NCBI RefSeq assembly: GCF_054482595.1
Contig: NZ_CM137008.1
Reading direction: 5' to 3' (one strand)
Length of the DNA: 64,000 bases
Translations under genes and position numbers: made by a program
Notes under the pieces: model-generated
The model's input: the letters and a program-made list of their open reading frames with translations, nothing else
Databases searched by the model: none
What the model was told of the DNA's origin: nothing
Part shown: positions 8,757 to 61,908 of the stretch, one piece after another
Position numbering within the stretch: position 1 is the stretch's first letter
How the letters are laid out: each line of letters opens with the position of its first letter

Positions 8757-10070
<1,314 letters not shown>

Positions 10071-10090
10071 GACTGACTTTATCTGATTTA

Positions 10091-10121
10091 AAAATGCCAG
10101 CCTCCGGGCTGGCATTTTTTA
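10091..10121. terminator. Rho-independent terminator shared by convergent eno and TPM operon
   Basis: aaaaa tgccagcc tccg ggctggca tttttt; GC stem flanked by A-run and T-run, so it works in both directions. Confidence 0.8.
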
Positions 10122-10129
10122 TGGTTGAG

Positions 10130-11023
10130 TTACCAGCGGCCGGATGCGCCGCCACCTCCAGAAGAACCGCCCCCGCCGCTAAATCCGCCGCCACTTGAGC
10201 CTCCACCGGAAGAGGATGAAGAAGAACCTTTTCTTGAAGCTCTTTCTTTACTGAGTTTTTTGTATTTGGCGCGTAGCTTTTTATTGACGATAAGCCAAAA
10301 AATAACCAGTGGTACGATCGCAAAAGGCGTTAACATACCGCAGGCAACGATTAAATTGGTCCATGGTCCTGGCTCGGCAACATAGAGGAATACCATCCCG
10401 TAAATGGCGCCAGTGAGAGTGATCCAGGGTAAATTCGACGGATCGGTAAAAACAATAAAATATGAAAGTACCGCCAGCAATATAATTACAGCAAGCGATA
10501 ATGGAATAGGGGGATTGATACTGTAATAATCCCCCCTGTCTTCCGGTAATTCACCATTTAACAGAAGCGCGCCGATATTTTCGCTTGCCAGTGTTAATCC
10601 ACCCATCAGGTCATCACTTTTGAAGGCAGGGATCAATATATCCCTGATAATCTTCGCCGCTTGCAGGTCGGTAACCACCCCTTCCAGCCCGTAGCCAACC
10701 TCAATACGAACAGCATGATCCTCCCAGGCAACCAGAAGTAAAATACCATCGTTTCTCTGCTTATCTCCCAGTTTCCAGCTATCAAAAACCCTTGTAGCAT
10801 ATTGTTCAATGGAATCGTCTCCGGTGGACGGCACTACTAATACAGCGACCTGCGCCCGTGTTTTATGTGTAATATCCTGCAGTTGCTGTGTCAGTGATTG
10901 TTGTTCAGAAGTGCTTAACGTACCAGTAATATCGGTCACCTGTTGGCGCAGTTCCGGCACAGCAATTTGCTGGGCAAGCCCAGGAAGACACCACAAAGTG
11001 AATAGAATAAAGATTAAGCGCAT
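10130..11023 (-). CDS. ygcG: TPM-domain (YgcG-like) membrane protein, paralog 1, with Gly/Ser-rich C-terminal tail
   Basis: ORF 10130..11035; likely ATG at 11021-11023 giving MRLIFILFTLWCLPGLA signal peptide; TPM core GILLLVAWEDHAVRIEVGYGLEG; predicted TM helices; tail SGGGGSSGGGGASGRW. Confidence 0.8.
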   Translation of the reverse strand: MRLIFILFTLWCLPGLAQQIAVPELRQQVTDITGTLSTSEQQSLTQQLQDITHKTRAQVAVLVVPSTGDDSIEQYATRVFDSWKLGDKQRNDGILLLVAWEDHAVRIEVGYGLEGVVTDLQAAKIIRDILIPAFKSDDLMGGLTLASENIGALLLNGELPEDRGDYYSINPPIPLSLAVIILLAVLSYFIVFTDPSNLPWITLTGAIYGMVFLYVAEPGPWTNLIVACGMLTPFAIVPLVIFWLIVNKKLRAKYKKLSKERASRKGSSSSSSGGGSSGGGFSGGGGSSGGGGASGRW

Positions 11024-11028
11024 TACGA

Positions 11029-12177
11029 TCACCAACGGCCGGATGAACCGCCGCCTCCTGAAGAACCGCCACCACCGCGGAAAGAATTTCTCGACGAAGA
11101 GCGAGAGTGAGCATTACGATTCCCCGTTTTCCTGTTGCTTTTTTCTCCTGATCCCAGCTTAAGATTGCCAGTAAATTTGGCCACAATGATCAGCAGAACG
11201 ATGCCAGCAATGGTTATTGGACCGATAAAATGATCAATTAACCCAATAATTGTTGAGATGAATGCAATATCTTTAATACTGGCGAACACCAGGCACCATC
11301 CCACAATAATTATCAGCATCACGACAAACAATGAATTTCGTCCTGATTCACGAACCTGCGGAGTCTTCTTTTGTTTTTTCACTTTAGCGTTTTTATTTTT
11401 TGGGGCCAGCATCATAGGAAATACGCGGCACAAATTAAAAACTACCGCGAGACGCTGCTTGCAGGTTGTTGCTAACAATAAACTAAAACAAACGATCGAC
11501 ACCCGCCGAATGATGACATCGTCCTGAAAGGAGAAAAACCAGACCATAGGGGTAATCATCGATATCATCCATATGCCACGCCGTGGGCGGCTGGCAAATC
11601 GCCAGAGGACAACGATGGCAACGATCATCAGCAGTGTCCAGGCAAGACATGGCAGCGAACGTTGCGGATTAGCAAACAGATGATTGGCTAAAGCATCCAA
11701 AGGGCTAAGGTTCGCTTTGATATGGGTAAACTGTGCGATGCTTTCAATTCCGCCCGTTAATCCAGCAAAGAGATTGTTTTTTTCGAATTCTGGCTGCATA
11801 TGGTAACGAACAATTTGCGCAGCTTGTTCCGGCGGCAACATCTGTTCCAGTCCATGTCCAATCTTCATTGACGCCAGCCCTTCCGGCCATACGACGAGAA
11901 TTAAGATACCTTCGCCATATCGCTTCTCTCCAACGGGTTTCCAGTGATATACCCCGTATCTCTGCGAGGCTGCAAGTTTAATGTTTTTGCCCCCTGTGGT
12001 CGGCGTAACCAACACGGCCACCTGGAAGTGGTTTTGCTGCTCGAGAGTCTGTAATTGTTGAGTTAAAGCAGTTTGTTCTTCTGTCGTTAATGTCCCGGTT
12101 AAGTCAGTCACTGAAGGCAATCGTTCAGCGAATACCTGAAAACCGCATAGCATCAGAAGTAAGAGAAAAATACGCAT
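11029..12177 (-). CDS. TPM-domain membrane protein, paralog 2 (382 aa, extended membrane region)
   Basis: MRIFLLLLMLCGFQVFA signal peptide; TPM core GILILVVWPEGLASMKIGHGLEQ; several hydrophobic segments; Lys-rich linker; tail GGGGSSGGGGSSGRW; stop 5 nt from paralog 1 start. Confidence 0.75.
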   Translation of the reverse strand: MRIFLLLLMLCGFQVFAERLPSVTDLTGTLTTEEQTALTQQLQTLEQQNHFQVAVLVTPTTGGKNIKLAASQRYGVYHWKPVGEKRYGEGILILVVWPEGLASMKIGHGLEQMLPPEQAAQIVRYHMQPEFEKNNLFAGLTGGIESIAQFTHIKANLSPLDALANHLFANPQRSLPCLAWTLLMIVAIVVLWRFASRPRRGIWMISMITPMVWFFSFQDDVIIRRVSIVCFSLLLATTCKQRLAVVFNLCRVFPMMLAPKNKNAKVKKQKKTPQVRESGRNSLFVVMLIIIVGWCLVFASIKDIAFISTIIGLIDHFIGPITIAGIVLLIIVAKFTGNLKLGSGEKSNRKTGNRNAHSRSSSRNSFRGGGGSSGGGGSSGRW

Positions 12178-12191
12178 ATCAATTCCTTTTG

Positions 12192-13115
12192 TTACCAGCG
12201 CCCGGAAGCGCCACCGCCACCAGATGAACCGCCACCACCGCTAAAATTGTCATTGTCGAATGAAGAGGATGACGATGATGAATAGTGGGAGAAAGAATTG
12301 CTTCTTGTATGGCGTGATGGCTGGTTGGCATCACGCATCAAATCCCGAACTTTTTTGCCGAAGGGGGTAAAAGCGATGGCGACAGCCAGGAACGGTGTGG
12401 CGAAGCAGAGTAATGTTGTGAGTACTCCCCAGCTTCCGCTGAAACCTGCTATAGGTAAAACAAAGGCCAGTACAATAGCTGCGAAGCAAATTACTCCCAG
12501 CGTTTTGATATATCCTCTGGCAGAAATAAACGTCAGTACTATCGCCCAGGCTAACAAGGCCCACCAACCGCTAAAAGGTAAAGGGTGATCGGCCGGTGCT
12601 ATCGTCGCTAAATTATTCCCTGCCAAACGGTTTTCAATATCGCTGAGTCCCTTTTGCAAGCCGCCAGCAAGATCACCATTTTTAAATGCCGGAATAATAC
12701 TGTTGCGAATAATTTGCCCGGACTGCGCATCCGTAATAATACCTTCCAGTCCGTAACCGATTTCAATACGCACGGTATGATCCTGCCAGGCGACTAACAG
12801 TAGAACGCCATCATCGCTGTCTTTATCACCCGGTTTCCAGCTATCGAATACCCGCGTTGCGTACTGCTCGATGGTTTCATCGCCTGTTGTATCAACCACT
12901 AACACGACCAACTGTGCGTGGTTTTTTTGCGTCAGGGCTTTAATCTGGTTGGTCAGGGTGTTTACTTCGCTGTTTGTTAATGTGCCGGTTAAGTCATTCA
13001 CATACTTGGGGGATTCAGGTACTGGAATTTGTGTGGCAAACACAGATGAACAGAAGAAAGCCATAAGGAAGATAAAATTTCGCACAGAACTTCCCCGCTT
13101 AATGAGCATTAGCAT
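12192..13115 (-). CDS. TPM-domain membrane protein, paralog 3
   Basis: 307 aa ORF; TPM core GVLLLVAWQDHTVRIEIGYGLEG; TM helices; tail SGGGGSSGGGGASGRW; start ATG at 13115 or 13109, overlapping the lemA 3' end. Confidence 0.75.
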   Translation of the reverse strand: MLMLIKRGSSVRNFIFLMAFFCSSVFATQIPVPESPKYVNDLTGTLTNSEVNTLTNQIKALTQKNHAQLVVLVVDTTGDETIEQYATRVFDSWKPGDKDSDDGVLLLVAWQDHTVRIEIGYGLEGIITDAQSGQIIRNSIIPAFKNGDLAGGLQKGLSDIENRLAGNNLATIAPADHPLPFSGWWALLAWAIVLTFISARGYIKTLGVICFAAIVLAFVLPIAGFSGSWGVLTTLLCFATPFLAVAIAFTPFGKKVRDLMRDANQPSRHTRSNSFSHYSSSSSSSFDNDNFSGGGGSSGGGGASGRW

Positions 13116-13701
13116 TCTGGCTAAAATCTATTGTTGGGGCTTTACTTACTGCGGCGACATCATCCGGTAAATAATTTTTCTTTGGCGTGTAATCCATGAC
13201 CTTTGCGGTTAATACAGCGGGGAATTTGCGGATAGTGACATTATATTGTTCAATGGCTTTAATATATCTTCCTCGCGCAACGGCAATTCTATTTTCACTT
13301 CCTTCGAGCTGTACCATTAAGTTTTGATAGAGTTCCTGAGATTTTAACTCAGGGTAACGCTCACTAATTATCGTTAACTGACCGAGAGTGCGAGTCACCT
13401 GCGCTTGAGCCTGTTGCCAGGCTTGTAATTTTTGTTCATCTCCCGGAGTTTGCTGAAGATCGCTACTGGCGCGATTAGCCTGGCTACGAGCCAATGTTAC
13501 GGCTTCCAGTACATCTCGTTCATGGCTGGAATAACCTTTAATGCTGGCGACAAGATTAGGAATAAGATCGGCGCGACGTTGATATTGATTCAATACCTCA
13601 GACCAGGAGGCGTTAACCTGCTCATCATAGGTTTGAATATCGTTATATCCACAGCCTGATAAATTGAAAATAAATATAATTACGATGAATATTCTGAGCA
13701 T
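13099..13701 (-). CDS. LemA-family protein, probable lipoprotein
   Basis: 200 aa ORF MLRIFIVIIFIFNLSGC with lipobox LSGC; LemA-like helical region; first gene of lemA-TPM-TPM-TPM operon. Confidence 0.75.
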   Translation of the reverse strand: MLRIFIVIIFIFNLSGCGYNDIQTYDEQVNASWSEVLNQYQRRADLIPNLVASIKGYSSHERDVLEAVTLARSQANRASSDLQQTPGDEQKLQAWQQAQAQVTRTLGQLTIISERYPELKSQELYQNLMVQLEGSENRIAVARGRYIKAIEQYNVTIRKFPAVLTAKVMDYTPKKNYLPDDVAAVSKAPTIDFSQNANAH

Positions 13702-14883: not shown

Positions 14884-15339
14884 GAGTTCCCCGCGCCAGC
14901 GGGGATAAACCGGCCTGGCGATTTCTCGTCAGGCCTTGCGGTGTGAGTTCCCCGCGCCAGCGGGGATAAACCGTCAGTAAAGCGGCGCCCACTGATATCG
15001 GATTAGAGTTCCCCGCGCCAGCGGGGATAAACCGAGGGGCAGGGAGTGACGCTGGAGCAGGCGATCGAGTTCCCCGCGCCAGCGGGGATAAACCGGGAAA
15101 TTAGGCAAATGTGAACACGGCGGCCCCGAGTTCCCCGCGCCAGCGGGGATAAACCGCCAGTATTTTGTCGTGGATTGCGGGATCACCAGAGTTCCCCGCG
15201 CCAGCGGGGATAAACCGTTGAGTTTGTTCGTAACAACGCGGGTCATCTGGAGTTCCCCGCGGCAGCGGGGATAAACCGGGTACAAAAGAGGCCCCATTCT
15301 GGCAGGGCTCAAGTTCCCCGCGCCAGTGGGGATAAACCA
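14884..15339 (+). CRISPR. Type I-E CRISPR array A: 8 repeats, 7 spacers of 32 nt
   Basis: Repeat gagttccccgcgccagcggggataaaccg at 14884, 14945, 15006, 15067, 15128, 15189, 15250 (c13g variant), 15311 (degenerate terminal); exact 61-bp period. Confidence 0.97.
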
Positions 15340-15793: not shown

Positions 15794-15932
15794 ATATTCC
15801 TTGTAAAAACAGGGATAAACCGAACTAGTTAAAGTTTTTATTATGTTCCCTGCATCAGCGGGGATAAACCGGACTTGTTATCATTTTTTAAGTTGTCGAA
15901 CTTATGTTCCCCGCGTCAGCGGGGATAACCAT
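15794..15932 (+). CRISPR. Decayed CRISPR remnant (3 degenerate repeats)
   Basis: Degenerate repeats at about 15794, 15843 (atgttccctgcatcagcggggataaaccg) and 15904 (atgttccccgcgtcagcggggataaccat); spacers 20 and 32 nt. Confidence 0.7.
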
Positions 15933-39562: not shown

Positions 39563-39577
39563 TTGAGGTGTAATAAA

Positions 39578-40780
<1,203 letters not shown>

Positions 40781-40885: not shown

Positions 40886-41768
40886 GAGTTCCCCGCGCCA
40901 GCGGGGATAAACCGCATTTAATGCAAAACTAATTGCACAATAAATAGAGTTCCCCGCGCCAGCGGGGATAAACCGGCGATAAACCTCCTCATCGCTGATA
41001 TCAATAAGAGTTCCCCGCGCCAGCGGGGATAAACCGATAAAGGCTCGGCGGCGCAAAAAATGGCACGGGAGTTCCCCGCGCCAGCGGGGATAAACCGCTC
41101 TCGTTGTTGTGCCTCAGTACCGGTGCGCGGAGTTCCCCGCGCCAGCGGGGATAAACCGCACACCGGTGCGACGGGAAACGTTCAGCGGCCGAGTTCCCCG
41201 CGCCAGCGGGGATAAACCGGGAATAGTTAATTTCGGTGATGGCTGCGTAAAGAGTTCCCCGCGGCAGCGGGGATAAACCGAGTAATGCTGCGTTGAGATG
41301 ACCAGGCGGGCTGAGTTCCCCGCGGCAGCGGGGATAAACCGTTGACGCCAGCGGCGACCCGCGCCACGGGCTTGAGTTCCCCGCGCCAGCGGGGATAAAC
41401 CGTAGCCAGACGTACTCGCAATCTGTCGGCGGTCGAGTTCCCCGCGCCAGCGGGGATAAACCACCAGTTCTCCGTATTCTGTGGTTATCGTTGCTGAGTT
41501 CCCCGCGCCAGCGGGGATAAACCGGGAGTTCAGACATAGGTGGAATGATGGACTACGAGTTCCCCGCGTTAGCGGGGATAAACCGCCCGGTAGCCAGGTT
41601 TGCAACGCCTGAACCGAGAGTTCCCCGCGCCAGCAGGGATAAACCGGCAACGACGGTGAGATTTCACGCCTGACGCTGGTGTTCCCCGCGCCAGCGGGGA
41701 TAAACCGGGCGCACTGGATGCGATGATGGATATCACTGAGAATTCCCCGCCCCTGCGGTAGAACACCC
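40886..41768 (+). CRISPR. Type I-E CRISPR array B: 15 repeats, 14 spacers of 32 nt
   Basis: Repeats every 61 bp from 40886 to 41740; variants at repeats 7-8 (c13g), 10 (3' a), 12 (cc to tt), 13 (g to a), 14 (a2t); terminal repeat 41740-41768 degenerate. Confidence 0.97.
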
Positions 41769-49152: not shown

Positions 49153-50514
<1,362 letters not shown>

Positions 50515-50653
50515 AACGTGAGGAAATACCTGGATTTTTCCTGGTTATTTTGCCGCAGGTCAGCGTATCGTGAACATCTTTTCCAGTGTTCAGTATGGTG
50601 CCTTGCACGGTAATTATGTCACTGGTTATTAACCAATTTTTCCTGGGGGATAA

Positions 50654-51793
50654 ATGAGCGCGGGAAGCCCAAAATTCACCGTTCGCCGCATTGCGGCTTT
50701 GTCACTGGTTTCGCTATGGCTGGCAGGCTGTTCTGACACTTCAAATCCACCGGCACCGGTCAGCTCCGTTAATGGCAATGCGCCTGCAAATACCAATTCT
50801 GGTATGTTGATTACGCCGCCGCCGAAAATGGGGACGACGTCTACAGCGCAGCAACCGCAAATTCAGCCGGTACAGCAGCCACAAATTCAGGCTACTCAAC
50901 AACCGCAAATCCAGCCAGTGCAGCCAGTAGCTCAGCAGCCGGTACAGATGGAAAACGGACGAATCGTCTACAACCGTCAGTATGGGAACATTCCGAAAGG
51001 CAGTTATAGCGGCAGTACATACACCGTGAAAAAAGGCGACACACTTTTCTATATCGCCTGGATTACTGGCAACGATTTCCGTGACCTTGCTCAGCGCAAC
51101 AATATTCAGGCACCATACGCGCTGAACGTTGGTCAGACCTTACAGGTGGGGAATGCTTCCGGTACGCCAATCACTGGCGGAAATGCCATTACCCAGGCCG
51201 ACGCAGCAGAGCAAGGAGTTGTGATCAAGCCTGCACAAAATTCCACCGTTGCTGTTGCGTCGCAACCGACAATTACGTATTCTGAGTCTTCGGGTGAACA
51301 GAGTGCTAACAAAATGTTGCCGAACAACAAGCCAACTGCGACCACGGTCACAGCGCCTGTAACGGTACCAACAGCAAGCACAACCGAGCCGACTGTCAGC
51401 AGTACATCAACCAGTACGCCTATCTCCACCTGGCGCTGGCCGACTGAGGGCAAAGTGATCGAAACCTTTGGCGCTTCTGAGGGGGGCAACAAGGGGATTG
51501 ATATCGCAGGCAGCAAAGGACAGGCAATTATCGCGACCGCAGATGGCCGCGTTGTTTATGCTGGTAACGCGCTGCGCGGCTACGGTAATCTGATTATCAT
51601 CAAACATAATGATGATTACCTGAGTGCCTACGCCCATAACGACACAATGCTGGTCCGGGAACAACAAGAAGTGAAGGCGGGGCAAAAAATAGCAACCATG
51701 GGTAGCACCGGAACCAGTTCAACACGCTTGCATTTTGAAATTCGTTACAAGGGGAAATCCGTAAACCCGCTGCGTTATTTGCCGCAGCGATAA
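50654..51793 (+). CDS. nlpD: Lipoprotein NlpD (LysM + M23 peptidase-like)
   Basis: 379 aa ORF with lipobox LAGC and QPQIQ repeats; rpoS promoter/leader lies inside the 3' half in K-12. Confidence 0.93.
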
Positions 51794-51855
51794 ATCGGCG
51801 GAACCAGGCTTTTGCTTGAATGTTCCGTCAAGGGATCACGGGTAGGAGCCACCTT

Positions 51856-52848
51856 ATGAGTCAGAATACGCTGAAAGTTCATGATTTAAATGAAGATGCG
51901 GAATTTGATGAGAACGGAGTTGAGGTTTTTGACGAAAAGGCCTTAGTAGAAGAGGAACCCAGTGATAACGATTTGGCCGAAGAGGAACTGTTATCGCAGG
52001 GAGCCACACAGCGTGTGTTGGACGCGACTCAGCTTTACCTTGGTGAGATTGGTTATTCACCACTGTTAACGGCCGAAGAAGAAGTTTATTTTGCGCGTCG
52101 CGCACTGCGTGGAGATGTCGCCTCTCGCCGCCGGATGATCGAGAGTAACTTGCGTCTGGTGGTAAAAATTGCCCGCCGTTATGGCAATCGTGGTCTGGCG
52201 TTGCTGGACCTTATCGAAGAGGGCAACCTGGGGCTGATCCGCGCGGTAGAGAAGTTTGACCCGGAACGTGGTTTCCGCTTCTCAACATACGCAACCTGGT
52301 GGATTCGCCAGACGATTGAACGGGCGATTATGAACCAAACCCGTACTATTCGTTTGCCGATTCACATCGTAAAGGAGCTGAACGTTTACCTGCGAACCGC
52401 ACGTGAGTTGTCCCATAAGCTGGACCATGAACCAAGTGCGGAAGAGATCGCAGAGCAACTGGATAAGCCAGTTGATGACGTCAGCCGTATGCTTCGTCTT
52501 AACGAGCGCATTACCTCGGTAGACACCCCGCTGGGTGGTGATTCCGAAAAAGCGTTGCTGGACATCCTGGCCGATGAAAAAGAGAACGGTCCGGAAGATA
52601 CCACGCAAGATGACGATATGAAGCAGAGCATCGTCAAATGGCTGTTCGAGCTGAACGCCAAACAGCGTGAAGTACTGGCACGTCGATTCGGTTTGCTGGG
52701 GTACGAAGCGGCAACACTGGAAGATGTAGGTCGTGAAATTGGCCTCACCCGTGAACGTGTTCGCCAGATTCAGGTTGAAGGCCTGCGCCGTTTGCGCGAA
52801 ATCCTGCAAACGCAGGGGCTGAATATCGAAGCGCTGTTCCGCGAATAA
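51856..52848 (+). CDS. rpoS: RNA polymerase sigma factor RpoS (sigma-38), apparently intact
   Basis: ATG at 51856 ([20 protein letters not shown]), 330 aa, no internal stop; ORF-track start 51820 is an upstream extension. Confidence 0.95.
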
Positions 52849-52861
52849 GTAAGCATCTGTC

Positions 52862-52898
52862 AGAAAGGCCAGTCTCAAGCGAGGCTGGCCTTTTTCTT
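52862..52898 (+). terminator. rpoS rho-independent terminator
   Basis: gaaaggccagtctcaagcgaggctggcctttttctttt. Confidence 0.8.
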
Positions 52899-52967
52899 TT
52901 GTTTGGGAAGCTTGTGTTTTTGTCGCCTGGATAAGACACGTCAGCGTCCTACCCGGCAATTTGCATC

Positions 52968-53375
52968 CTATGTGTTCATCATCTTGCGCACCAGCTGCAC
53001 AAACAGCTCCTGCTCTTCTGCACTCAAACGCCCCAAAAATTCCTCATCCACGCTGTCACCAATCGGTATCGCCGCAGCAAGTATCTTTTCTCCTTCGGCA
53101 GTCAGCCAGACAAAGCGACGCCGCTTGTCAGCGGCATCATGTTCACGTCTGACTAAGCCACGATTCTCCATTCTTGCCAACATTTCTGCCAACGTTGCTT
53201 TGGTGCTGACTGCTGCTTCTATCAGTGCCACCTGTTCGATACCAGGCTTATCAGCAATGGCGCGCATCACCGCATACTGTGGTTTGGTCAGGTCAGGTAA
53301 CTCGTGCTGCCAGCGAGCCGTGTGCTGCTGAAAAAGCTGTCGTAACTGATGGAACGCTTTATTTCGTAACGCCAT
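52968..53375 (-). CDS. hosA: MarR/SlyA-family transcriptional regulator (HosA-like)
   Basis: Likely start MALRNKAFHQLRQLFQQ inside ORF 52968..53408; winged-helix MarR-like region; symbol recalled from pathogenic E. coli literature. Confidence 0.75.
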   Translation of the reverse strand: MALRNKAFHQLRQLFQQHTARWQHELPDLTKPQYAVMRAIADKPGIEQVALIEAAVSTKATLAEMLARMENRGLVRREHDAADKRRRFVWLTAEGEKILAAAIPIGDSVDEEFLGRLSAEEQELFVQLVRKMMNT

Positions 53376-53521
53376 GTAAACTCCGGGCAAACTATCTGCC
53401 GCTATCATAGCGGTTTTTCAGTGACGAAGGGGATGTTGTTACTTTTCAGTGCTTGCCGCAATGAGAACAGAGGCGTATTTTAATAATAACGTTCGTATAC
53501 GAACAATTAAGAGAGTAAGCA

Positions 53522-54115
53522 ATGAAACTGATCGTCGGTATGACAGGGGCTACCGGTGCGCCTCTTGGTGTGGCATTACTGCAAGCGCTGCGGGAGATGC
53601 CGAATGTCGAGACTCATCTGGTGATGTCGAAGTGGGCGAAAACCACCATTGAACTGGAAACGCCTTACAGCGCCCGCGATGTTGCTGCCCTCGCTGACTT
53701 CAGCCATAACCCGGCGGATCAGGCGGCGACCATCTCCTCAGGTTCCTTTCGTACCGACGGCATGATCGTTATTCCGTGCAGTATGAAAACGCTCGCCGGT
53801 ATCCGCGCTGGTTACGCTGATGGCCTGGTAGGGCGCGCGGCGGACGTCGTGCTCAAAGAAGGCCGCAAACTGGTGCTGGTGCCGCGTGAAATGCCGCTTA
53901 GCACCATCCATCTCGAAAATATGCTCGCACTTTCACGCATGGGCGTGGCGATGGTGCCGCCGATGCCTGCCTTTTATAACCATCCCGAAACGGTAGATGA
54001 CATTGTCCACCATGTAGTAGCCCGCGTGCTGGATCAATTTGGCCTCGAACATCCCCACGCCAGGCGCTGGCAAGGATTGCCGCAGGTCCGGAATTTTTAT
54101 CAGGAGAATGAATAA
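53522..54115 (+). CDS. ecdB: UbiX-like flavin prenyltransferase (decarboxylase B subunit)
   Basis: 197 aa ORF MKLIVGMTGATGAPLGVALLQALREMPNVETHLVMSKWA. Confidence 0.85.
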   Translation: MKLIVGMTGATGAPLGVALLQALREMPNVETHLVMSKWAKTTIELETPYSARDVAALADFSHNPADQAATISSGSFRTDGMIVIPCSMKTLAGIRAGYADGLVGRAADVVLKEGRKLVLVPREMPLSTIHLENMLALSRMGVAMVPPMPAFYNHPETVDDIVHHVVARVLDQFGLEHPHARRWQGLPQVRNFYQENE

Positions 54116-55542
54116 TGGCATTTGATGATTTACGCAGCTTTTTACAGGCGCTTGATGACCACGGCCAGTTACTGAAAATCAGCGAAGAGGTGAACGCGGA
54201 ACCGGATCTGGCTGCCGCTGCCAACGCCACCGGGCGTATCGGCGATGGTGCACCGGCGCTGTGGTTTGATAATATTCGCGGTTTTACCGATGCCCGCGTG
54301 GCGATGAATACCATCGGTTCCTGGCAGAACCACGCGATTTCCCTGGGCCTGCCGCCAAACACCCCGGTTAAAAAACAGATTGATGAGTTTATCCGCCGCT
54401 GGGATAACTTCCCGATCGCCCCGGAGCGCCGCGCCAATCCAGCCTGGGCGCAGAACACCGTCGATGGTGACGAGATTAATCTGTTCGATATCCTGCCGCT
54501 GTTTCGTTTAAACGACGGTGATGGCGGTTTCTATCTCGACAAAGCGTGCGTGGTTTCCCGCGATCCGCTCGACCCGGATAACTTCGGCAAGCAGAACGTC
54601 GGCATCTACCGCATGGAAGTGAAGGGCAAGCGTAAGCTCGGCCTGCAACCGGTGCCGATGCACGATATCGCCCTGCATCTGCATAAAGCAGAAGAGCGCG
54701 GTGAAGATCTACCTATTGCGATCACGCTCGGTAACGATCCGATCATCACGCTGATGGGCGCAACGCCACTGAAATACGATCAGTCTGAGTATGAAATGGC
54801 AGGCGCGCTGCGTGAAAGCCCGTACCCGATCGCCACCGCCCCGCTGACCGGTTTTGATGTGCCGTGGGGTTCAGAAGTGATCCTCGAAGGGGTCATCGAA
54901 AGCCGTAAACGCGAAATTGAAGGGCCGTTCGGTGAGTTTACCGGACACTACTCCGGCGGGCGTAACATGACCGTGGTGCGCATCGATAAAGTCTCTTACC
55001 GCACCAGGCCGATTTTCGAATCGCTGTACCTCGGCATGCCGTGGACCGAAATCGACTACCTGATGGGGCCAGCCACCTGTGTGCCGCTGTATCAGCAACT
55101 TAAAGCCGAGTTCCCGGAAGTACAGGCGGTGAACGCCATGTACACCCACGGCCTGCTGGCGATTATCTCCACCAAAAAACGCTACGGCGGCTTTGCCCGC
55201 GCGGTGGGCCTGCGTGCGATGACCACGCCGCACGGTCTGGGCTACGTAAAGATGGTGATTATGGTCGATGAAGACGTTGACCCGTTCAACCTGCCGCAGG
55301 TGATGTGGGCGCTCTCCTCGAAAGTAAATCCGGCAGGGGATTTGGTGCAGTTGCCGAATATGTCCGTGCTGGAACTCGACCCTGGCTCAAGCCCGGCGGG
55401 GATCACCGACAAGCTGATTATCGACGCCACCACGCCTGTCGCCCCGGACAACCGTGGTCACTACAGCCAGCCGGTGGTGGATTTGCCGGAAACCAAAGCC
55501 TGGGCTGAAAAACTGACCGCTATGCTGGCCGCACGTAAATAA
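54115..55542 (+). CDS. ecdC: UbiD-family aromatic acid decarboxylase (C subunit)
   Basis: 475 aa ORF MAFDDLRSFLQALDDHGQLLKISEEVNAEPDLAAAANA; start overlaps ecdB stop. Confidence 0.85.
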   Translation: MAFDDLRSFLQALDDHGQLLKISEEVNAEPDLAAAANATGRIGDGAPALWFDNIRGFTDARVAMNTIGSWQNHAISLGLPPNTPVKKQIDEFIRRWDNFPIAPERRANPAWAQNTVDGDEINLFDILPLFRLNDGDGGFYLDKACVVSRDPLDPDNFGKQNVGIYRMEVKGKRKLGLQPVPMHDIALHLHKAEERGEDLPIAITLGNDPIITLMGATPLKYDQSEYEMAGALRESPYPIATAPLTGFDVPWGSEVILEGVIESRKREIEGPFGEFTGHYSGGRNMTVVRIDKVSYRTRPIFESLYLGMPWTEIDYLMGPATCVPLYQQLKAEFPEVQAVNAMYTHGLLAIISTKKRYGGFARAVGLRAMTTPHGLGYVKMVIMVDEDVDPFNLPQVMWALSSKVNPAGDLVQLPNMSVLELDPGSSPAGITDKLIIDATTPVAPDNRGHYSQPVVDLPETKAWAEKLTAMLAARK

Positions 55543-55552
55543 GGAGAACAAG

Positions 55553-55789
55553 ATGATTTGTCCACGTTGTGCCGATGAACAGATTGAAGTGATGGCGAAA
55601 TCGCCGGTGAAAGATGTCTGGACGGTATATCAGTGCCAGCATTGCCTTTATACCTGGCGCGATACCGAACCGCTGCGCCGTACCAGCCGCGAACATTATC
55701 CCGAAGCGTTCCGCATGACGCAGAAAGATATTGATGACGCGCCAATGGTGCCGAGCATCCCGCCGCTGCTGGCGGAAGGTAAGCGCTAA
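55553..55789 (+). CDS. ecdD: Small decarboxylase D subunit with 4-Cys zinc-ribbon-like motif
   Basis: 78 aa ORF MICPRCADEQIEVMAKSPVKDVWTVYQCQHCLYTWRD. Confidence 0.8.
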   Translation: MICPRCADEQIEVMAKSPVKDVWTVYQCQHCLYTWRDTEPLRRTSREHYPEAFRMTQKDIDDAPMVPSIPPLLAEGKR

Positions 55790-55829
55790 TAAAAAGTGCC
55801 GGGTAGTGGCTTTGCTTTACCCGGCCTCA

Positions 55830-56486
55830 TTACTTTATTTTATAAAATGACAGCCGCCCGCTTTTCGGCGATCCGGTATCAATATAAATCTGGTTAGCGA
55901 ACGTCTGAATGTTATCAAACATCATATGTCCAAATATAAAATAATCAGCGCCGTTTATTTGTTGTAACTCGCCATTAAGCGATTTCTGCACACGATCAAC
56001 AGGCCAGAGTAATTCGCTCTCCGCTATTTCTTTACCAAAGAGATATTCACTCCCCGGATAATCTGCATGTGCGATGACATATTTTATGTTGTCGTTAGTG
56101 ATTTCAATAATATGTGGAAGGTGATGGAATTTCAGCAACAGATCTGTAGCTTCTTTTTGCTCTGAATCATTTAAATCGAAAAACCAGTCACCACCGCTGG
56201 CAAGCCACATATTGCCATCGCCGGTCGCGAACGCATCCAGCGCCATTGCTTCGTGGTTGCCTTTAACGGAGATAAACCAGGGCTGGTTTAGCAGGCGCAG
56301 GACGTTAAGACTCTCCGGCCCACGATCAATATTATCGCCGACAGAAATAAGTAAGTCGGTTTCGGGGAAAAAAGAGAGTTGATGTAAGCGGGATTGTAAT
56401 AACTGATATTCACCATGAATATCACCAACGACCCATATATGGCGATAGTGATGGGCATTGATTTTTTGATAGCGTGTAGATGGCAT
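55830..56486 (-). CDS. pphB: Serine/threonine protein phosphatase 2
   Basis: 218 aa ORF MPSTRYQKINAHHYRHIWVVGDIHGEYQLL; metallophosphatase GDxHG motif. Confidence 0.92.
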   Translation of the reverse strand: MPSTRYQKINAHHYRHIWVVGDIHGEYQLLQSRLHQLSFFPETDLLISVGDNIDRGPESLNVLRLLNQPWFISVKGNHEAMALDAFATGDGNMWLASGGDWFFDLNDSEQKEATDLLLKFHHLPHIIEITNDNIKYVIAHADYPGSEYLFGKEIAESELLWPVDRVQKSLNGELQQINGADYFIFGHMMFDNIQTFANQIYIDTGSPKSGRLSFYKIK

Positions 56487-56591
56487 GGTTTTACCCTGTA
56501 AAATAAGCTTTCCTATTATACAGGGTATTTTTATTTGATTCGTCAGTTATCGTTAATATTCCCGATAGCAAAAGACTATCGGGAATTATTA

Positions 56592-59153
56592 TTACACCAG
56601 ACTCTTCAGGCGATAAATCCATTCCAGCGCCTGACGCGGGGTGAGTGAATCCGGATCGAGGTTTTCCAGTGCCTCGACCGCAGGCGAGGTTTCTTCCGGT
56701 ACGGACAGCAAAGACATTTGTGTACCATCCACTTGCGTAGCGGCGGCGTTCGGCGAAATGCTTTCCAGCTCACGCAGTTTTTGCCGTGCGCGCTTAATCA
56801 CCTCTTTTGGCACGCCCGCCAGAGCTGCAACCGCCAGGCCGTAGCTTTTGCTCGCCGCGCCATCCTGCACGCTATGCATAAAGGCAATGGTGTCGCCGTG
56901 CTCCAGTGCATCGAGATGCACGTTGGCGACGCCTTCCATTTTCTCCGGTAACTGGGTCAGCTCGAAATAGTGGGTAGCAAACAGCGTCAATGCCTTAATC
57001 TTATTCGCCAGATTTTCCGCGCACGCCCATGCCAGTGACAGACCATCGTAAGTGGACGTTCCACGCCCGATCTCATCCATTAACACCAGACTGTATTCGG
57101 TGGCGTTATGTAAAATATTGGCGGTTTCAGTCATCTCCACCATAAAGGTTGAGCGCCCGGAAGCCAGGTCATCTGCCGCGCCTACGCGGGTAAAGATGCG
57201 ATCGATAGGTCCAATCTCGACTTTTTGTGCCGGTACATAGCTGCCGATGTAGGCCATCAGCGCAATCAGTGCGGTCTGGCGCATATAGGTACTTTTACCG
57301 CCCATGTTCGGGCCGGTAATAATCAACATCCGGCGCTGCGGTGACAGATTCAGCGGGTTGGCGATAAATGGCTCGTTCAGCACCTGTTCAACCACCGGAT
57401 GGCGGCCTTCGGTAATGCGAATGCCCGGTTTATCAATAAAGGTCGGGCAGGTGTAGTTCAGGGTATAGGCCCGTTCCGCCAGGTTCACCAGCACGTCGAG
57501 TTCCGCCAGCGCGCTCGCGCTCTGTTGCAACGCTTCCAGATGCGGCAACAGCAGGTCGAACAACTCTTCATAAAGCTGTTTTTCCAGTGCCAGTGCTTTG
57601 CCTTTTGAAGTGAGGACTTTGTCTTCGTACTCTTTCAGCTCTGGAATAATGTAACGCTCGGCGTTTTTCAGCGTCTGGCGACGCATGTAGTTGATGGGTG
57701 CCAGATGGCTTTGTCCACGGCTGATTTGAATGTAGTAGCCGTGCACCGCATTAAAGCCAACTTTCAGCGTGTCCAGGCCGGTACGTTCACGCTCGCGGAC
57801 TTCCAGACGCTCCAGATAATCGGTCGCGCCGTCAGCCAGCGCACGCCACTCATCCAGCTCTTCGTTATAGCCCGATGCGATAACACCACCGTCGCGTACC
57901 AGCACCGGCGGTGTGTCGATGATTGCTCGCTCCAGCAGATCGCGCAGCTCGGCAAACTCGCCCATCTTCTCACGCAGCGCCTGTACCGGTGCACTATCGA
58001 CAGTTTCTAACTGCGCACGCAGCTCCGGCAGTTGCTGGAAAGCGTGGCGCATACGGGCCAGATCGCGTGGGCGAGCAGTTCGTAAAGCCAGACGTGCCAG
58101 AATACGTTCCAGGTCGCCGACCTGACGCAGTACCGGCTGTAGCCCGGCGGTGAAATCCTGCAATGCGCCAATAGTTTGCTGGCGCTCAAGCAACACGCGG
58201 GTATCGCGCACTGGCATATGCAGCCAGCGTTTCAGCATACGGCTGCCCATCGGCGTGACGGTGCAGTCGAGCACAGAAGCCAGCGTATTTTCCGCACCAC
58301 CCGCCAGGTTCTGGGTGATTTCCAGATTACGACGCGTCGCGGCATCCATAATGATGCTGTCCTGCTCACGTTCCATGGTGATGGAACGAATATGCGGCAG
58401 AGTCGTACGTTGGGTATCTTTCGCATACTGCAACAGACAACCGGCAGCACAAAGTCCGCGCGGCGCGTTCTCGACGCCAAAACCGACCAGATCGCGGGTG
58501 CCAAATTGCAGATTCAACTGCTGGCGCGCGGTGTCGATTTCAAACTCCCACAGCGGGCGACGGCGCAGGCCGCGACGGCCTTCAATCAGCGACATCTCGG
58601 CGAAATCTTCTGCATACAGCAGTTCCGCCGGATTAGTGCGTTGCAATTCTGCCGCCATCGTTTCGCGGTCGGCCGGTTCGCTAAGGCGAAAACGCCCGGA
58701 ACTGATATCCAGCGTCGCGTAGCCGAAACCTTTGCTGTCCTGCCAGATAGCCGCCAGCAGGTTGTCCTGACGCTCCTGCAACAGGGCTTCATCGCTGATG
58801 GTGCCTGGCGTAACGATACGCACAACTTTGCGCTCAACCGGACCTTTGCTGGTCGCCGGATCGCCAATTTGTTCGCAGATGGCAACGGACTCGCCCTGAT
58901 TCACCAGTTTGGCGAGGTAGTTTTCCACCGCATGGTAGGGGATCCCCGCCATCGGGATCGGCTCTCCCGCTGAAGCACCTCGTTTGGTCAGTGAAATATC
59001 CAGCAGTTGCGACGCGCGTTTTGCGTCGTCATAAAACAGTTCATAAAAATCACCCATCCGGTAAAACAGCAGGATCTCGGGATGCTGGGCTTTCAGCTTG
59101 AGATACTGCTGCATCATGGGCGTATGGGCGTCGAAATTTTCTATTGCACTCAT
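56592..59153 (-). CDS. mutS: DNA mismatch repair protein MutS
   Basis: 853 aa [43 protein letters not shown]; Walker [10 protein letters not shown]. Confidence 0.97.
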
Positions 59154-59391
59154 GGGGTTATGTCCGGTTCCCTGATATTAAATGGGGTGTGATGGTTTTT
59201 ATTTTCGTTGTAATCACATAAGGCGCACATGATACCGGAGTTAATCATTTCAGGGGAAGAAGCGAACGGCGAGTTCTTGATGCTGGTTCCGGGAAAGATG
59301 CTGTTTTGCAGCTTTTGCGTGATGCTTATGAAGCAAGTACGCAAAATTGTATCGGTTGGCGAACCCTTCTTCTTTAGAGTCATAGTGCCCT

Positions 59392-59425
59392 TTAAGATTA
59401 AGTTGTAATATAAATGCATCTTAAT
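59392..59425 (+). promoter_or_regulatory. NsrR-operator-like inverted repeat upstream of ygbA (approximate coordinates)
   Basis: aagttgtaatataaatgcatctt about 20-45 nt upstream of ygbA ATG; right half aaatgcatctt matches NsrR half-site as I remember it. Confidence 0.45.
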
Positions 59426-59439
59426 GAGGTGGAGGCATC

Positions 59440-59793
59440 ATGTCCGGCAAGCGTATCTCTCGTGAAAAACTGACGATTAAAAAAATGATCGATCTTTATC
59501 AAGCGAAATGCCCGCAGGCGTCAGCGGAGCCGAAGCATTACGAGGCGTTGTTTGTTTACGCGCAAAAGCGGCTGGATAAATGTGTGTTCGGCGAAGAGAA
59601 GCCAGCCTGTAAGCAGTGTCCGGTGCACTGTTACCAGCCTGCAAAGCGTGAAGAGATGAAACAGATTATGCGTTGGGCCGGGCCGAGAATGCTGTGGCGT
59701 CATCCGATCTTAACCGTGCGTCATCTCATCGATGACAAGCGTCCGGTGCCAGAACTGCCGGAAAAATATCGTCCGAAAAAACCTCGTGAATAG
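59440..59793 (+). CDS. ygbA: YgbA (NsrR-regulon, Cys-rich small protein)
   Basis: 117 aa ORF MSGKRISREKLTIKKMIDLYQAKCPQASAEPKHYEALFVYAQKRLDKCVFGEEKPACKQCPVHCY. Confidence 0.9.
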   Translation: MSGKRISREKLTIKKMIDLYQAKCPQASAEPKHYEALFVYAQKRLDKCVFGEEKPACKQCPVHCYQPAKREEMKQIMRWAGPRMLWRHPILTVRHLIDDKRPVPELPEKYRPKKPRE

Positions 59794-59829
59794 TATGCCG
59801 GACAGTCAGATCTGTCCGGCAATTTGCAG

Positions 59830-61908
59830 TTAAATCAATGCCGATTTATCAATTCCCAGTCGCTTCATCCGTGACAGCAGGGTCGTGCGTTTCAGCCCCA
59901 GACGTTGCGCAGCGCCTTTAGGCCCGGCAACCACGCCGTTAGTTTCTTTCAGCACGCGAACAATCAACTGATATTCATCTTCGCCCTCCTGAGCGACAAC
60001 CGTTGCGGCAGGCGGCGTTTCAGGCTCCGGTAAAGCAATATCTGGCAATGACAGCTGCAGCACGTTGCCGCGTGTTAGCAATACCGCGCGCTCAATGACG
60101 TTTTCCAGTTCGCGTACGTTACCCGGCCACTCCATATTGCTCAAGGTGCGCAACGTCTCGGCAGGAATGCTGTCGATATTGCGCCCCAGACGACGGGCAA
60201 TTTTGAAGGTAAAGGCTTTCGCCAGCAGCGGAATATCTTCCGGACGCTCGCGTAGTGGCGGAAGGTGAATCGGGAATACGTTCAGGCGGTAATAGAGATC
60301 GCTACGGAACTCACGGTCGGCGACCATTTTTTTCAGATCGCGGTTAGTCGCGGCGATTAGACGCACGTCCGTCTGAATGATTTTGTTGCTGCCGAGGCGT
60401 TCAAACTCCTGTTCCTGCAATACACGCAGCAACTTCGGCTGTAACTCCAGTGGCATATCGCCCACTTCGTCGAGGAACAGGGAGCTTTTATCCGCCAGTT
60501 CAAAACGACCGATACGCTGGGCGCTGGCACCGGTAAAAGCCCCACGCTCATGACCAAACAGATCGCTCTCCAGCAATCCGGCAGGCATCGCCGCGCAGTT
60601 CATTTTGACCATGCGGCGATTATTACGCCCACTGAGATTATGGATAGCACGGGCAATCAGCTCTTTACCCGTGCCAGTTTCACCGAGGATCAGCACGGTA
60701 CTGTCACTTTGCGCCACCATTTCAACTTGTTTAAGCACGCTGTACATGGCTTCGCTGCGGCCAATAATCTCGCCAAATTCACTATCAACATTGTTGAGCT
60801 GCTCGGTCAGGGCGAGGTTTTCATCAACCAGCCGTTCTTTCAGACGATGGATTTCCTGATAGGCGAGGGCGTTATCGACAGCGATTGCCACACGTTCGGC
60901 AATCTGGCGCAGTAAATTCAGATTGGTAGTGGTAAACACTTTCTCTTCACATTGCGCCAGTTTCAGCACGCCCAGCATGGTGTCGCCAGACATCAGCGGT
61001 AACAGGCACAAGGTTTGAATCTGGTTGCCCCAGGTATCGAACAACATGCGTTCATACGGGGCTAAATCATCCCGCTCGTGGAGATTAATCAGCAGCATCT
61101 CTTTACTTTTGAACACGCGTTCGGTGAGGGTTCCGGCTTCATCGACTTCGCTCTGTTCGTGGGCGGGATGCTGTTTATCAAGATAGTGAGTGGAGTAGAT
61201 GTTGAGTTTGTTTTTACGGTGGCTGCGTAAGACGATACTGATATCGTCAATATCGAAATAGTAATGGATTTCTTTGGCGACTTCGCTGACCAGTTCGTCC
61301 ATATCCAGGCGGGAAAGCACCGCGTTGGTGATGGCGACCAGGATGCGGAAGTTATCGCGTTCCCGGCATAACAACTCATAGTCGACATTGTTAACGACGC
61401 GGCTCTGGATTTGTTCGGTGACGACAGAAACGATCTGCGTAAATGTTTGCAGACGATTGAACTCTTTTTCGCTCCAGGGGCGATCGTCATAACGAATAAA
61501 TTCACAGCCACCAAAAATATGCCCTTCCGCCGCCAGTGGCATCAGGCAATAGTGACCAAATTTGGGGTATAGCCCACCTGCGGCCAGCTGCGGCCAGGTT
61601 TCACAAAATTCTTCGTAACTGCAATGCAGCGTATCAGGGCGCGACAAAATGCTGCGTACCGGACCGTGTGCCAGAACAGTTTCGTCTTCATATTTAATGG
61701 GGGTGTCTTTTTCACGCGATGCGTAATAAGACGCACGTTGAGTCTGCGCTTGCCACAACACAATAGCCGCGTTGTCGGCGAGCGCAGAACGCTTTACCAG
61801 TTGCGAAAGAGCCTCACACAGCGAGGCCAGATCGGGCTGCTGCAATAGTGTCCGAGTGATGTCGAACAACCCTTGCTGTCCGAGATCACTCATCGGTGTA
61901 TATGACAT
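59830..61908 (-). CDS. fhlA: Formate hydrogenlyase transcriptional activator FhlA (sigma-54 dependent)
   Basis: Start MSYTPMSDLGQQGLFDITRTLLQ inside ORF 59830..61944; AAA+ sigma-54 activator domain with GESGTGKE; C-terminal HTH. Confidence 0.94.
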   Translation of the reverse strand: MSYTPMSDLGQQGLFDITRTLLQQPDLASLCEALSQLVKRSALADNAAIVLWQAQTQRASYYASREKDTPIKYEDETVLAHGPVRSILSRPDTLHCSYEEFCETWPQLAAGGLYPKFGHYCLMPLAAEGHIFGGCEFIRYDDRPWSEKEFNRLQTFTQIVSVVTEQIQSRVVNNVDYELLCRERDNFRILVAITNAVLSRLDMDELVSEVAKEIHYYFDIDDISIVLRSHRKNKLNIYSTHYLDKQHPAHEQSEVDEAGTLTERVFKSKEMLLINLHERDDLAPYERMLFDTWGNQIQTLCLLPLMSGDTMLGVLKLAQCEEKVFTTTNLNLLRQIAERVAIAVDNALAYQEIHRLKERLVDENLALTEQLNNVDSEFGEIIGRSEAMYSVLKQVEMVAQSDSTVLILGETGTGKELIARAIHNLSGRNNRRMVKMNCAAMPAGLLESDLFGHERGAFTGASAQRIGRFELADKSSLFLDEVGDMPLELQPKLLRVLQEQEFERLGSNKIIQTDVRLIAATNRDLKKMVADREFRSDLYYRLNVFPIHLPPLRERPEDIPLLAKAFTFKIARRLGRNIDSIPAETLRTLSNMEWPGNVRELENVIERAVLLTRGNVLQLSLPDIALPEPETPPAATVVAQEGEDEYQLIVRVLKETNGVVAGPKGAAQRLGLKRTTLLSRMKRLGIDKSALI

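Follow-up and report, generated by a model that had tools for sequence, protein, structure and literature searches.

Gene content and boundaries of the locus

The window analysed here, a stretch of 64,000 nucleotides from contig NZ_CM137008.1 (RefSeq assembly GCF_054482595.1), carries at positions 52968-55789 a module of four genes: hosA on the minus strand and, divergent from it, the genes for the B, C and D subunits of a decarboxylase on the plus strand. The open reading frames lie where a first-pass annotation, made from the sequence, had placed them, and their Pfam and NCBIfam matches exclude chance open reading frames. The left edge of the variable interval is the intrinsic terminator hairpin of rpoS (52862..52895, plus strand), found by a terminator scan; junction comparison and K-12 genome matches identify it as the point at which, ahead of the interval, the sequence ceases to be shared with K-12. 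The conserved flank on the right, outside the module, is pphB (55830..56486, minus strand), encoding a protein serine/threonine phosphatase (NCBIfam PRK09968, 473 bits, cut-off 332). Strain XH990 matches the window at 100% identity and carries a concordant annotation. In an Rfam scan of positions 50000-60000 (E<=0.1), the sole match was a sub-threshold hit to ctRNA_p42d on the rpoS terminator (28.7 against 50 bits), which we treated as chance.

The regulator gene, hosA (52968..53375, minus strand), encodes a MarR-family repressor of 135 aa (Pfam MarR, PF01047, E 7e-12, 45.4 bits against a cut-off of 24.6). The product had been called 'hosA-like'; it shares 133 of its 135 residues with the 'Transcriptional regulator HosA' of PDB 8aga and is thus, by homology, HosA itself. 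The old annotation 'slyA' is a misnomer, as the SlyA model NF002926 scores 30.0 bits against a cut-off of 120. The longest open reading frame of hosA begins at an in-frame ATG at 53408 and would give 146 aa, but this start has no Shine-Dalgarno sequence and falls within a palindrome. The 135-aa start is preceded by a GGAG Shine-Dalgarno and is the one used both by RefSeq (a 408-nt CDS in XH990) and by the PDB chain.

A predicted VdcBCD-type decarboxylase

The B gene (53522..54115, plus strand; pad1/ecdB/vdcB/kpdB type) encodes a UbiX-family flavin prenyltransferase of 197 aa, which exceeds the cut-offs of NCBIfam VdcB (NF041206, 312.3 against 290), of TIGR00421 (246.1 against 108.9) and of the UbiX family model (257.5, cut-off 188), and matches Pfam Flavoprotein at 2e-44. 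It is identical to PDB 1SBZ at 194 of 197 positions, the three mismatches being C-terminal residues (179, 189 and 192) outside the Flavoprotein domain. The C gene (54115..55542, plus strand; yclC/ecdC/vdcC type) encodes a 475-aa protein of the UbiD family, predicted to be a decarboxylase dependent on prenylated FMN (prFMN). It scores 790.5 with NCBIfam VdcC (NF041204, cut-off 650) and 1e-54 with Pfam UbiD, and matches ShVdcC of Sedimentibacter hydroxybenzoicus (PDB 7ae4) at 2e-160, its residues R166, E269, E274 and L421 aligning with the catalytic R168, E273, E278 and L425 of that enzyme. The D gene (55553..55789, plus strand; ecdD/vdcD type) encodes a 78-aa Cys4 zinc ribbon, a putative activator of the C subunit, which scores 121.2 with NCBIfam VdcD (NF041205, cut-off 30) and matches ShVdcD (7ae4_a). 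Its cysteines C3, C6, C28 and C31, arranged in two CXXC knuckles, occupy the Zn-ligand positions given in PMC8379154.

The three genes follow one another in the order B-C-D and form one compact operon: the stop codon of B overlaps the start codon of C (TAATG), and a gap of 10 nt containing an AAGGAG Shine-Dalgarno separates C from D. By homology, B-C-D corresponds to a prFMN-dependent non-oxidative hydroxyarylic acid decarboxylase of the VdcBCD type. The first-pass annotation had recognized a UbiX-like, a UbiD-like and a small Cys4 gene and had predicted a prFMN-dependent decarboxylase from them; all three Vdc models are passed above their curated cut-offs, and together with the structure matches they point to the same enzyme type.

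The same B-C-D set is found in Sedimentibacter hydroxybenzoicus VdcCD and Bacillus subtilis BsdBCD (PMC8379154; PDB 7ae4), which share with the present module the R/E/E/L residues of C and the Cys4 Zn ribbon of D, and presumably the prFMN chemistry as well. In contrast to the Sedimentibacter system, the window has a D subunit 10 residues longer and a different regulator, its C subunit is 54% identical, and the salt-bridge residue R12 of ShVdcD is replaced by E12. For the Sedimentibacter enzyme, VdcD was found to be strictly required for activity, with 4-hydroxybenzoate (4-HBA) and vanillate as substrates (PMC8379154). Any substrate range proposed for the present enzyme is extrapolated from the ligand of HosA and from these Bacillus and Sedimentibacter enzymes, at 54% identity.

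B and C are members of the UbiX and UbiD superfamilies, and C has distant matches (9e-47) to 2idb and 5m1c, structures of E. coli UbiD, so that the two genes could in principle be the housekeeping ubiquinone pair UbiX/UbiD (3-octaprenyl-4-hydroxybenzoate decarboxylase) or its duplicate. We consider this extremely improbable: C reaches 173.7 with the UbiD equivalog model NF008175, far from its cut-off of 788, while passing the VdcC model; the locus also includes a VdcD gene and a repressor that senses 4-HBA; and E. coli chromosomes hold a second, separate place matching C, presumably the true ubiD. Moreover, K-12 has a complete ubiquinone pathway, although the module is wholly absent from it, which argues against a role in that pathway. 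The VdcBCD-type module shares with ubiquinone biosynthesis the superfamilies and the logic of a prFMN maker paired with a prFMN user, but it differs in having a D subunit, in its probably soluble phenolic acid substrates and in being accessory rather than core.

A second question concerns substrate and direction. UbiD enzymes are reversible and have overlapping substrate ranges (PMC8379154), and homologues of B and D boost the protocatechuate decarboxylase AroY (PMC5779730); the enzyme might accordingly act on another phenolic acid (protocatechuate or gallate, as in AroY or LpdC) or work physiologically as a carboxylase that turns phenol into 4-HBA. However, AroY-type structures are far more distant from C (5o3m, 1e-27; 5ny5, 3e-25) than is VdcC, models of phenylphosphate carboxylase stay far under their cut-offs, and the regulator of the operon shows a specific response to 4-HBA, 38-fold in vivo for HosA of O157:H7 (PMC13355054). 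Such a substrate or direction is therefore very unlikely. Phenylphosphate carboxylase and BagM/N were rejected as identities, their NCBIfam models being below cut-off.

In the following scheme for the VdcBCD-type enzyme, what is said of substrate, cofactor chemistry, promoter position and 4-HBA induction comes from the literature or is deduced. The B protein would prenylate reduced FMN to prFMN. With this cofactor and its R-E-E triad, the C protein would catalyse reversible decarboxylation of 4-hydroxybenzoate to phenol and of vanillate to guaiacol, and the D protein would bind C beside the catalytic loops as a Zn-ribbon subunit needed for activity. Placed on a 14-bp palindrome that separates the promoter from the start codon of B, a HosA dimer would block transcription and mediate autoregulation, until binding of 4-hydroxybenzoate to HosA releases it from the DNA.

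The hosA-B intergenic region

The HosA operator GTTCGTATACGAAC, a perfect palindrome of 14 bp, was located by a repeat search at 53491..53504. It ends 17 nt upstream of the ATG of the B gene, is identical with its flanks to the HosA binding-site oligonucleotide in the supplement of PMC6261655, and occurs once in the window even when up to 2 mismatches are allowed. Salmonella has the operator exactly and at equal spacing, and Klebsiella has it, likewise in a conserved position, with 1 mismatch. Relief of DNA binding by 4-hydroxybenzoate is reported for HosA in PMC6261655 (KD 4.7 uM), in bioRxiv 10.1101/2024.04.24.590444 and in PMC13355054. HosA was also reported to repress both its own gene and the operon for the hydroxyarylic acid decarboxylase (HAD), with 4-HBA as inducer and the operator downstream of the transcription start (bioRxiv 10.1101/2024.04.24.590444).

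A candidate sigma-70 promoter for the operon (TTGCCG, 17 nt, TATTTT; 8/12 matches) was read by eye at 53453..53481 on the plus strand. It would put the operator just 3' of the transcription start, in agreement with the HosA report (bioRxiv 10.1101/2024.04.24.590444). The assignment is a weak one, since a sigma-70 scan of the hosA-B intergenic region returned no promoter with at least 9/12 matches, and it was made by hand and marked as inferred because the overall counts of that scan equalled those in shuffled sequence. In the leader of hosA (53399..53413), the repeat search also identified CCGCTAT-c-ATAGCGG, a perfect 7+7 palindrome, and an alignment shows it conserved in one strain that carries the module together with the ygb genes.

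Types of the rpoS-mutS interval in E. coli

In K-12, the same position is occupied by ygbN-ygbM-ygbL-otnK-ltnD-ygbI. K-12 strains match the query over its initial 45 nt alone (window positions 52850-52894, in the rpoS terminator), and comparison with reference genomes places no copy of the module at this position in K-12. In a census of junctions covering 5426 complete genomes of E. coli, four layouts emerged: the K-12 layout (pattern II) in 1944 genomes (36%), the decarboxylase operon plus the ygb genes (pattern IV) in 1593 (29%), the B2 layout (pattern III) in 1041 (19%) and the layout of the window (pattern I) in 805 (15%). The HAD module is absent from K-12-type and B2-type E. coli.

Pattern I, the O157:H7/EHEC-1 type (Ewers 2014), was assessed with the primers and amplicon sizes of Table 1 in PMC4209514. 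In-silico PCR of the window gave products of 1208/8679/361/1318/1393 bp, the exact sizes of O157:H7 EDL933, among them fhlA-nlpD (8679 bp), mutS-yclC (1318 bp) and slyA-nlpD (1393 bp). The window contains no o454/ygbN, as is characteristic of pattern I, and no sites for primers F4, F5, R3 and R5 (the ygbN-ygbI and o347/pattern III primers). Its background is a non-K-12, non-B2 interval of the O157:H7 'pattern I' type. Three points of the first-pass annotation, that this interval is polymorphic in E. coli, that K-12 has other genes here and that the background is not of the K-12 type, are all borne out by the census, the gene content of K-12, the amplicon sizes and the 45-nt limit of the K-12 match.

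Taken together, the locus is almost certainly the HosA-controlled non-oxidative HAD locus in its O157:H7-type pattern I form. This rests directly on gene identities, on the catalytic and Zn-binding residues, on how the operon is built, on the sequence of the operator and on the distribution across the population and genera. The locus goes by several other names, namely slyA/hosA-pad1-yclC-yclD, ecdBCD, kpdBCD-type and vdcBCD-type. In O157:H7 (pad1-yclC-yclD/ecdBCD) it is the identical locus, with strain-level substitutions as the only differences, an identical operator and an ecdD-pphB junction 100% identical to that of the window; overall, the urinary isolate XH990, not O157, gives the best match. 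The known system also comprises HosA of UPEC UMN026 and of EPEC E2348/69 (Roy & Ranjan 2016, Biochemistry 55:1120).

Distribution in other genera and ancestry of the module

Orthologues of the module are found in Klebsiella (kpdBCD), Enterobacter (ecdBCD) and Salmonella, with a C subunit 97-98% identical in protein and 86-87% in DNA, a MarR gene in divergent orientation and an operator whose position is conserved. The Klebsiella flanks differ, comprising DUF4440/MFS/LysR genes and hok, without pphB. For synteny, and for that use only, we included tblastn 'plasmid' records of E. coli and Klebsiella pneumoniae of 4.8-5.4 Mb, which are evidently mislabelled chromosomes, and a 728-kb Salmonella 'plasmid 2' bearing core chromosomal genes (rpoS, nlpD and cysC).

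Parts of the literature (the background of PMC4209514 and the title of bioRxiv 10.1101/2024.04.24.590444) regard the module as inserted or as a product of horizontal acquisition, and both an 'acquired from Shigella' claim and an 'insertion in O157:H7' view would suit a recent arrival. Its GC content (56-60%, against ~51-53% in the left flank) and its close homologues on Pantoea and Rahnella megaplasmids likewise fit a recently acquired, pathogen-specific islet, as opposed to an ancestral segment lost in K-12. Four observations speak against such an origin, which we judge unlikely. The module occupies the rpoS-mutS interval also in Klebsiella, in the same orientation, and in Salmonella, inverted between ygbI and rpoS. 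Its nucleotide identity to Salmonella and Klebsiella is 75-89%, like the 77-93% of nlpD, rpoS and mutS. About 44% of complete E. coli genomes, from all sources and beyond pathogens, carry it. Finally, the 1593 pattern IV genomes hold it together with the ygb genes, so that the K-12 and O157 layouts resemble alternative deletions. As its divergence across genera is about that of the flanking core genes, the module appears to have long resided in the rpoS-mutS interval of enterobacteria and to have been lost from K-12.

The ecdD-pphB spacer

In the pattern I layout, the decarboxylase operon points head-on at pphB-mutS, with a 40-nt spacer between them. This spacer contains a hairpin at 55795..55827 (RNA fold -18.4 kcal/mol, z = -3.1) that is specific to the O157-type junction of the 805 pattern I genomes; pattern IV and K-12 junctions have other spacers. 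Because a T-run comes after it on the minus strand, the hairpin is likely the pphB terminator. The U-tract on the plus strand is weaker, and read-through induced by 4-HBA could for that reason disturb pphB and mutS through antisense effects or transcriptional interference. We attach a very slight probability to this scenario; if true, it would link dietary phenolic acid exposure to mismatch-repair expression, in O157-type strains only.

Significance

The locus, its polymorphism, its regulation by HosA and 4-hydroxybenzoate, the structures and the enzyme mechanism have all been published, and nothing in them is new. Earlier work on the locus, its regulation and its polymorphism includes PMC4209514 and PMC8379154, as well as Roy & Ranjan (2016) as relayed in bioRxiv 10.1101/2024.04.24.590444 and PMC13355054. 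As a discovery the finding carries little weight, the enzyme family having solved structures and a described mechanism, and HosA is already in use as a 4-hydroxybenzoate biosensor. The rpoS-mutS interval is a textbook mosaic locus used in E. coli typing, and the census, with its 5426 complete genomes, brings the frequencies of the four types up to date. As for the history of the module, the cross-genus comparison favours a module that is 'ancestral and repeatedly lost' rather than one 'recently acquired from Shigella'.

A hosA regulator gene and a decarboxylase operon between rpoS and mutS

The presence of hosA and a BCD operon in the rpoS-mutS interval of the window was confirmed. In the ORF listing, truD-surE-pcm-nlpD-rpoS on the plus strand is followed by five genes and then by mutS. 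Beyond the rpoS terminator hairpin (52862-52895) lie a MarR-type gene on the minus strand (52968..53408; 146 aa as the longest ORF), the plus-strand genes B (53522..54115; 197 aa), C (54115..55542; 475 aa) and D (55553..55789; 78 aa) and, again on the minus strand, pphB (55830..56486; 218 aa) and mutS (56592..59153; 853 aa). The segment 52968-55789 delimited by the first-pass annotation corresponds exactly to the outer ends of hosA, B, C and D in this listing. The stop codon of B overlaps the start of C (TAATG), and the 10-nt gap between C and D contains an AAGGAG Shine-Dalgarno motif. BCD is therefore a compact operon with translational coupling, divergent from the regulator gene.

The first-pass annotation had proposed a hosA-like MarR-family regulator and UbiX-like, UbiD-like and small Cys4 subunit genes, and the protein comparisons bear this out. 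In Pfam, the regulator is assigned to MarR and B to Flavoprotein, and C contains three UbiD domains. B, C and D score 312.3, 790.5 and 121.2 against VdcB, VdcC and VdcD, the NCBIfam models for 'non-oxidative hydroxyarylic acid decarboxylase' (HAD) subunits, above the curated cut-offs of 290, 650 and 30, respectively. B is identical to PDB 1SBZ at 194 of 197 positions, the three differences all lying in the C-terminal tail; this entry is Pad1 of E. coli O157:H7, reportedly the structure of Rangarajan et al. from 2004. The regulator is identical at 133 of 135 positions to PDB 8aga and six other entries named 'Transcriptional regulator HosA'; the alignment begins at the Met encoded at 53375, which supports the 135-aa start also chosen by RefSeq. 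C shares 54% identity with Sedimentibacter VdcC (PDB 7ae4), an entry that also contains ShVdcD, the chain matched by D. When the residues named in PMC8379154 were mapped onto both proteins, R166, E269, E274 and L421 of C aligned with the catalytic R168, E273, E278 and L425, and C3, C6, C28 and C31 of D occupied the positions of the four Zn ligands. Other assignments were rejected with NCBIfam: C scores 173.7 against the ubiquinone UbiD equivalog (cut-off 788) and fails the phenylphosphate carboxylase models, and the regulator scores 30 against the SlyA equivalog (cut-off 120).

The HosA operator

The 146-bp intergenic region between the divergent hosA and B contains a perfect 14-bp palindrome, GTTCGTATACGAAC (53491-53504), whose end lies 17 nt upstream of the start codon of B. 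The supplement of PMC6261655 gives an oligonucleotide for HosA binding with the same palindrome and flanks; that study reports a 14-bp palindromic HosA site and release of the protein from it by 4-hydroxybenzoate (4-HBA or 4-HB), with a KD of 4.7 uM. Allowing up to two mismatches, this operator is unique in the 64-kb window. It is identical in one pattern-IV E. coli, where the module is ~96% identical, exact in Salmonella with the same spacing to the B start, and has one mismatch in Klebsiella. According to the summary of Roy & Ranjan (2016) in bioRxiv 10.1101/2024.04.24.590444, HosA represses its own gene and the HAD operon with 4-HBA as inducer, the operator being positioned downstream of the site where transcription starts. 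A weak candidate promoter, TTGCCG-17-TATTTT at 53453-53481, where the threshold of our promoter scan was not reached, would make the operator span roughly +3 to +16. The O157:H7 regulator shows a 38-fold specific in vivo response to 4-HB (2026 study, PMC13355054).

Another perfect palindrome, CCGCTAT-c-ATAGCGG, is present in the hosA leader (53399-53413), followed on the plus strand by TTTTT, and is kept in one pattern-IV strain. It may act as a second site for a regulator, or as a hairpin in the RNA.

Distribution and evolution of the interval

A 2981-bp query across the interval was searched in 5426 complete E. coli genomes. It is 100% identical in strain XH990 (urine, China), where the annotation names a MarR regulator and the B, C and D subunits of HAD, and reaches at least 80% coverage in 2379 of the 5426. 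The interval had been described as polymorphic, with other genes in K-12, and comparison with reference genomes agrees: K-12 carries ygbN..ygbI at this position and lacks the module, its derivatives matching only the first 45 nt of the query, the rpoS terminator.

Annotated genomes show four layouts, the interval types of Ewers et al. 2014 (PMC4209514), which we counted in the same genomes with junction queries (at least 80% coverage). Pattern I (hosA and BCD between rpoS and pphB-mutS; window, XH990, O157:H7) was found in 805 genomes, pattern II (ygbN, ygbM, ygbL, otnK, ltnD, ygbI; K-12) in 1944, pattern III (flavodoxin, MBL hydrolase, then ygbN..ygbI; ST131, phylogroup B2) in 1041 and pattern IV (hosA, BCD, then ygbN..ygbI; MRSN346595) in 1593, summing to 5383/5426. 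The pattern-I junction is 100% identical in O157:H7 genomes. In silico PCR on the window with the primers of PMC4209514 gave products of 1208, 8679, 361, 1318 and 1393 bp, in exact agreement with the EDL933 sizes in that paper's table. The window contains no binding sites for those primers that lie in the ygbN-ygbI cluster or in o347 (the pattern-III gene), and its interval is thus of pattern I. The background section of PMC4209514 dates a description of the 2.9-kb O157:H7 segment to 1999.

Because pattern IV has both gene sets, the interval seems to have been fuller once, K-12 and O157 having lost alternative parts of it. This reading agrees with 'Gene conservation and loss...', as Herbelin et al. 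titled their 2000 paper (cited in PMC4209514). The origin claimed in a 2024 preprint (bioRxiv 10.1101/2024.04.24.590444), 'acquired from Shigella', does not fit it. The module also occupies the rpoS-mutS interval of Klebsiella pneumoniae, oriented as in the window and flanked by other genes, and in Salmonella Senftenberg it is inverted between ygbI and rpoS; its nucleotide identity to these genera (75-89%) is in the same range as that of nlpD, rpoS and mutS (77-93%). The 40-nt ecdD-pphB spacer of pattern I (55790-55829) has its own hairpin (55795-55827; -18.4 kcal/mol, z = -3.1) and is unlike both pattern-IV junctions, with no obvious derivation from either, so that simple loss of the ygb cluster does not account for pattern I.

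Further variants were observed. In strain SJ3 (L009 2174-4255), an IS91-family element replaces surE-3', pcm, nlpD, rpoS, hosA, ecdB and most of ecdC; this is an independent IS91-associated deletion, and SJ3 a natural rpoS-deleted strain with an operon remnant. E. coli 2021CK-01784 (L008 5182-6726) represents a further, divergent pattern-I-like variant, in which pphB is only 85% identical to that of the window and is separated from mutS by an additional tetratricopeptide-repeat gene. Plasmid-collection records of 0.7-5.4 Mb with the core chromosomal genes rpoS, mutS and cysC (Salmonella Senftenberg 'plasmid 2', L006; Klebsiella pneumoniae 'plasmid unnamed2', L007; three E. coli) are evidently chromosomes or chromosome fragments mislabelled as plasmids.

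Other features of the window

Type I-E cas1e (39563-40494) is broken into a pair of ORFs at 39563..40051 and 40048..40494, the same frameshifted pseudogene annotated in the near-identical XH990, so that spacer acquisition is probably disabled. I-E CRISPR array 1 (14886-15339) has 8 repeats plus a degenerate repeat at 15845. Array 2 (40888-41707) has 14 repeats, and its 5 spacer units (305 bp) fewer than XH990 are the main difference between the two upstream of rpoS. Collinearity with XH990 (L004 9825-13396) places a cluster of LemA/TPM-domain genes beside eno at 9800-13700; in XH990, the annotation gives one of its TPM genes as a truncated pseudogene.

Implications

The gene set, the prenylated-FMN (prFMN) mechanism, the 4-HBA/HosA switch with its operator and the rpoS-mutS polymorphism are already fully known, as are the structures of HosA, the B subunit and the Sedimentibacter homologues of C and D. 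That transcription of the induced operon continues into the convergent genes pphB-mutS of pattern-I strains is a speculative and unlikely idea. The first-pass interpretation, a prFMN-dependent reversible decarboxylase for phenolic acids, is supported; its activity and induction are predicted from published work on identical or homologous proteins.
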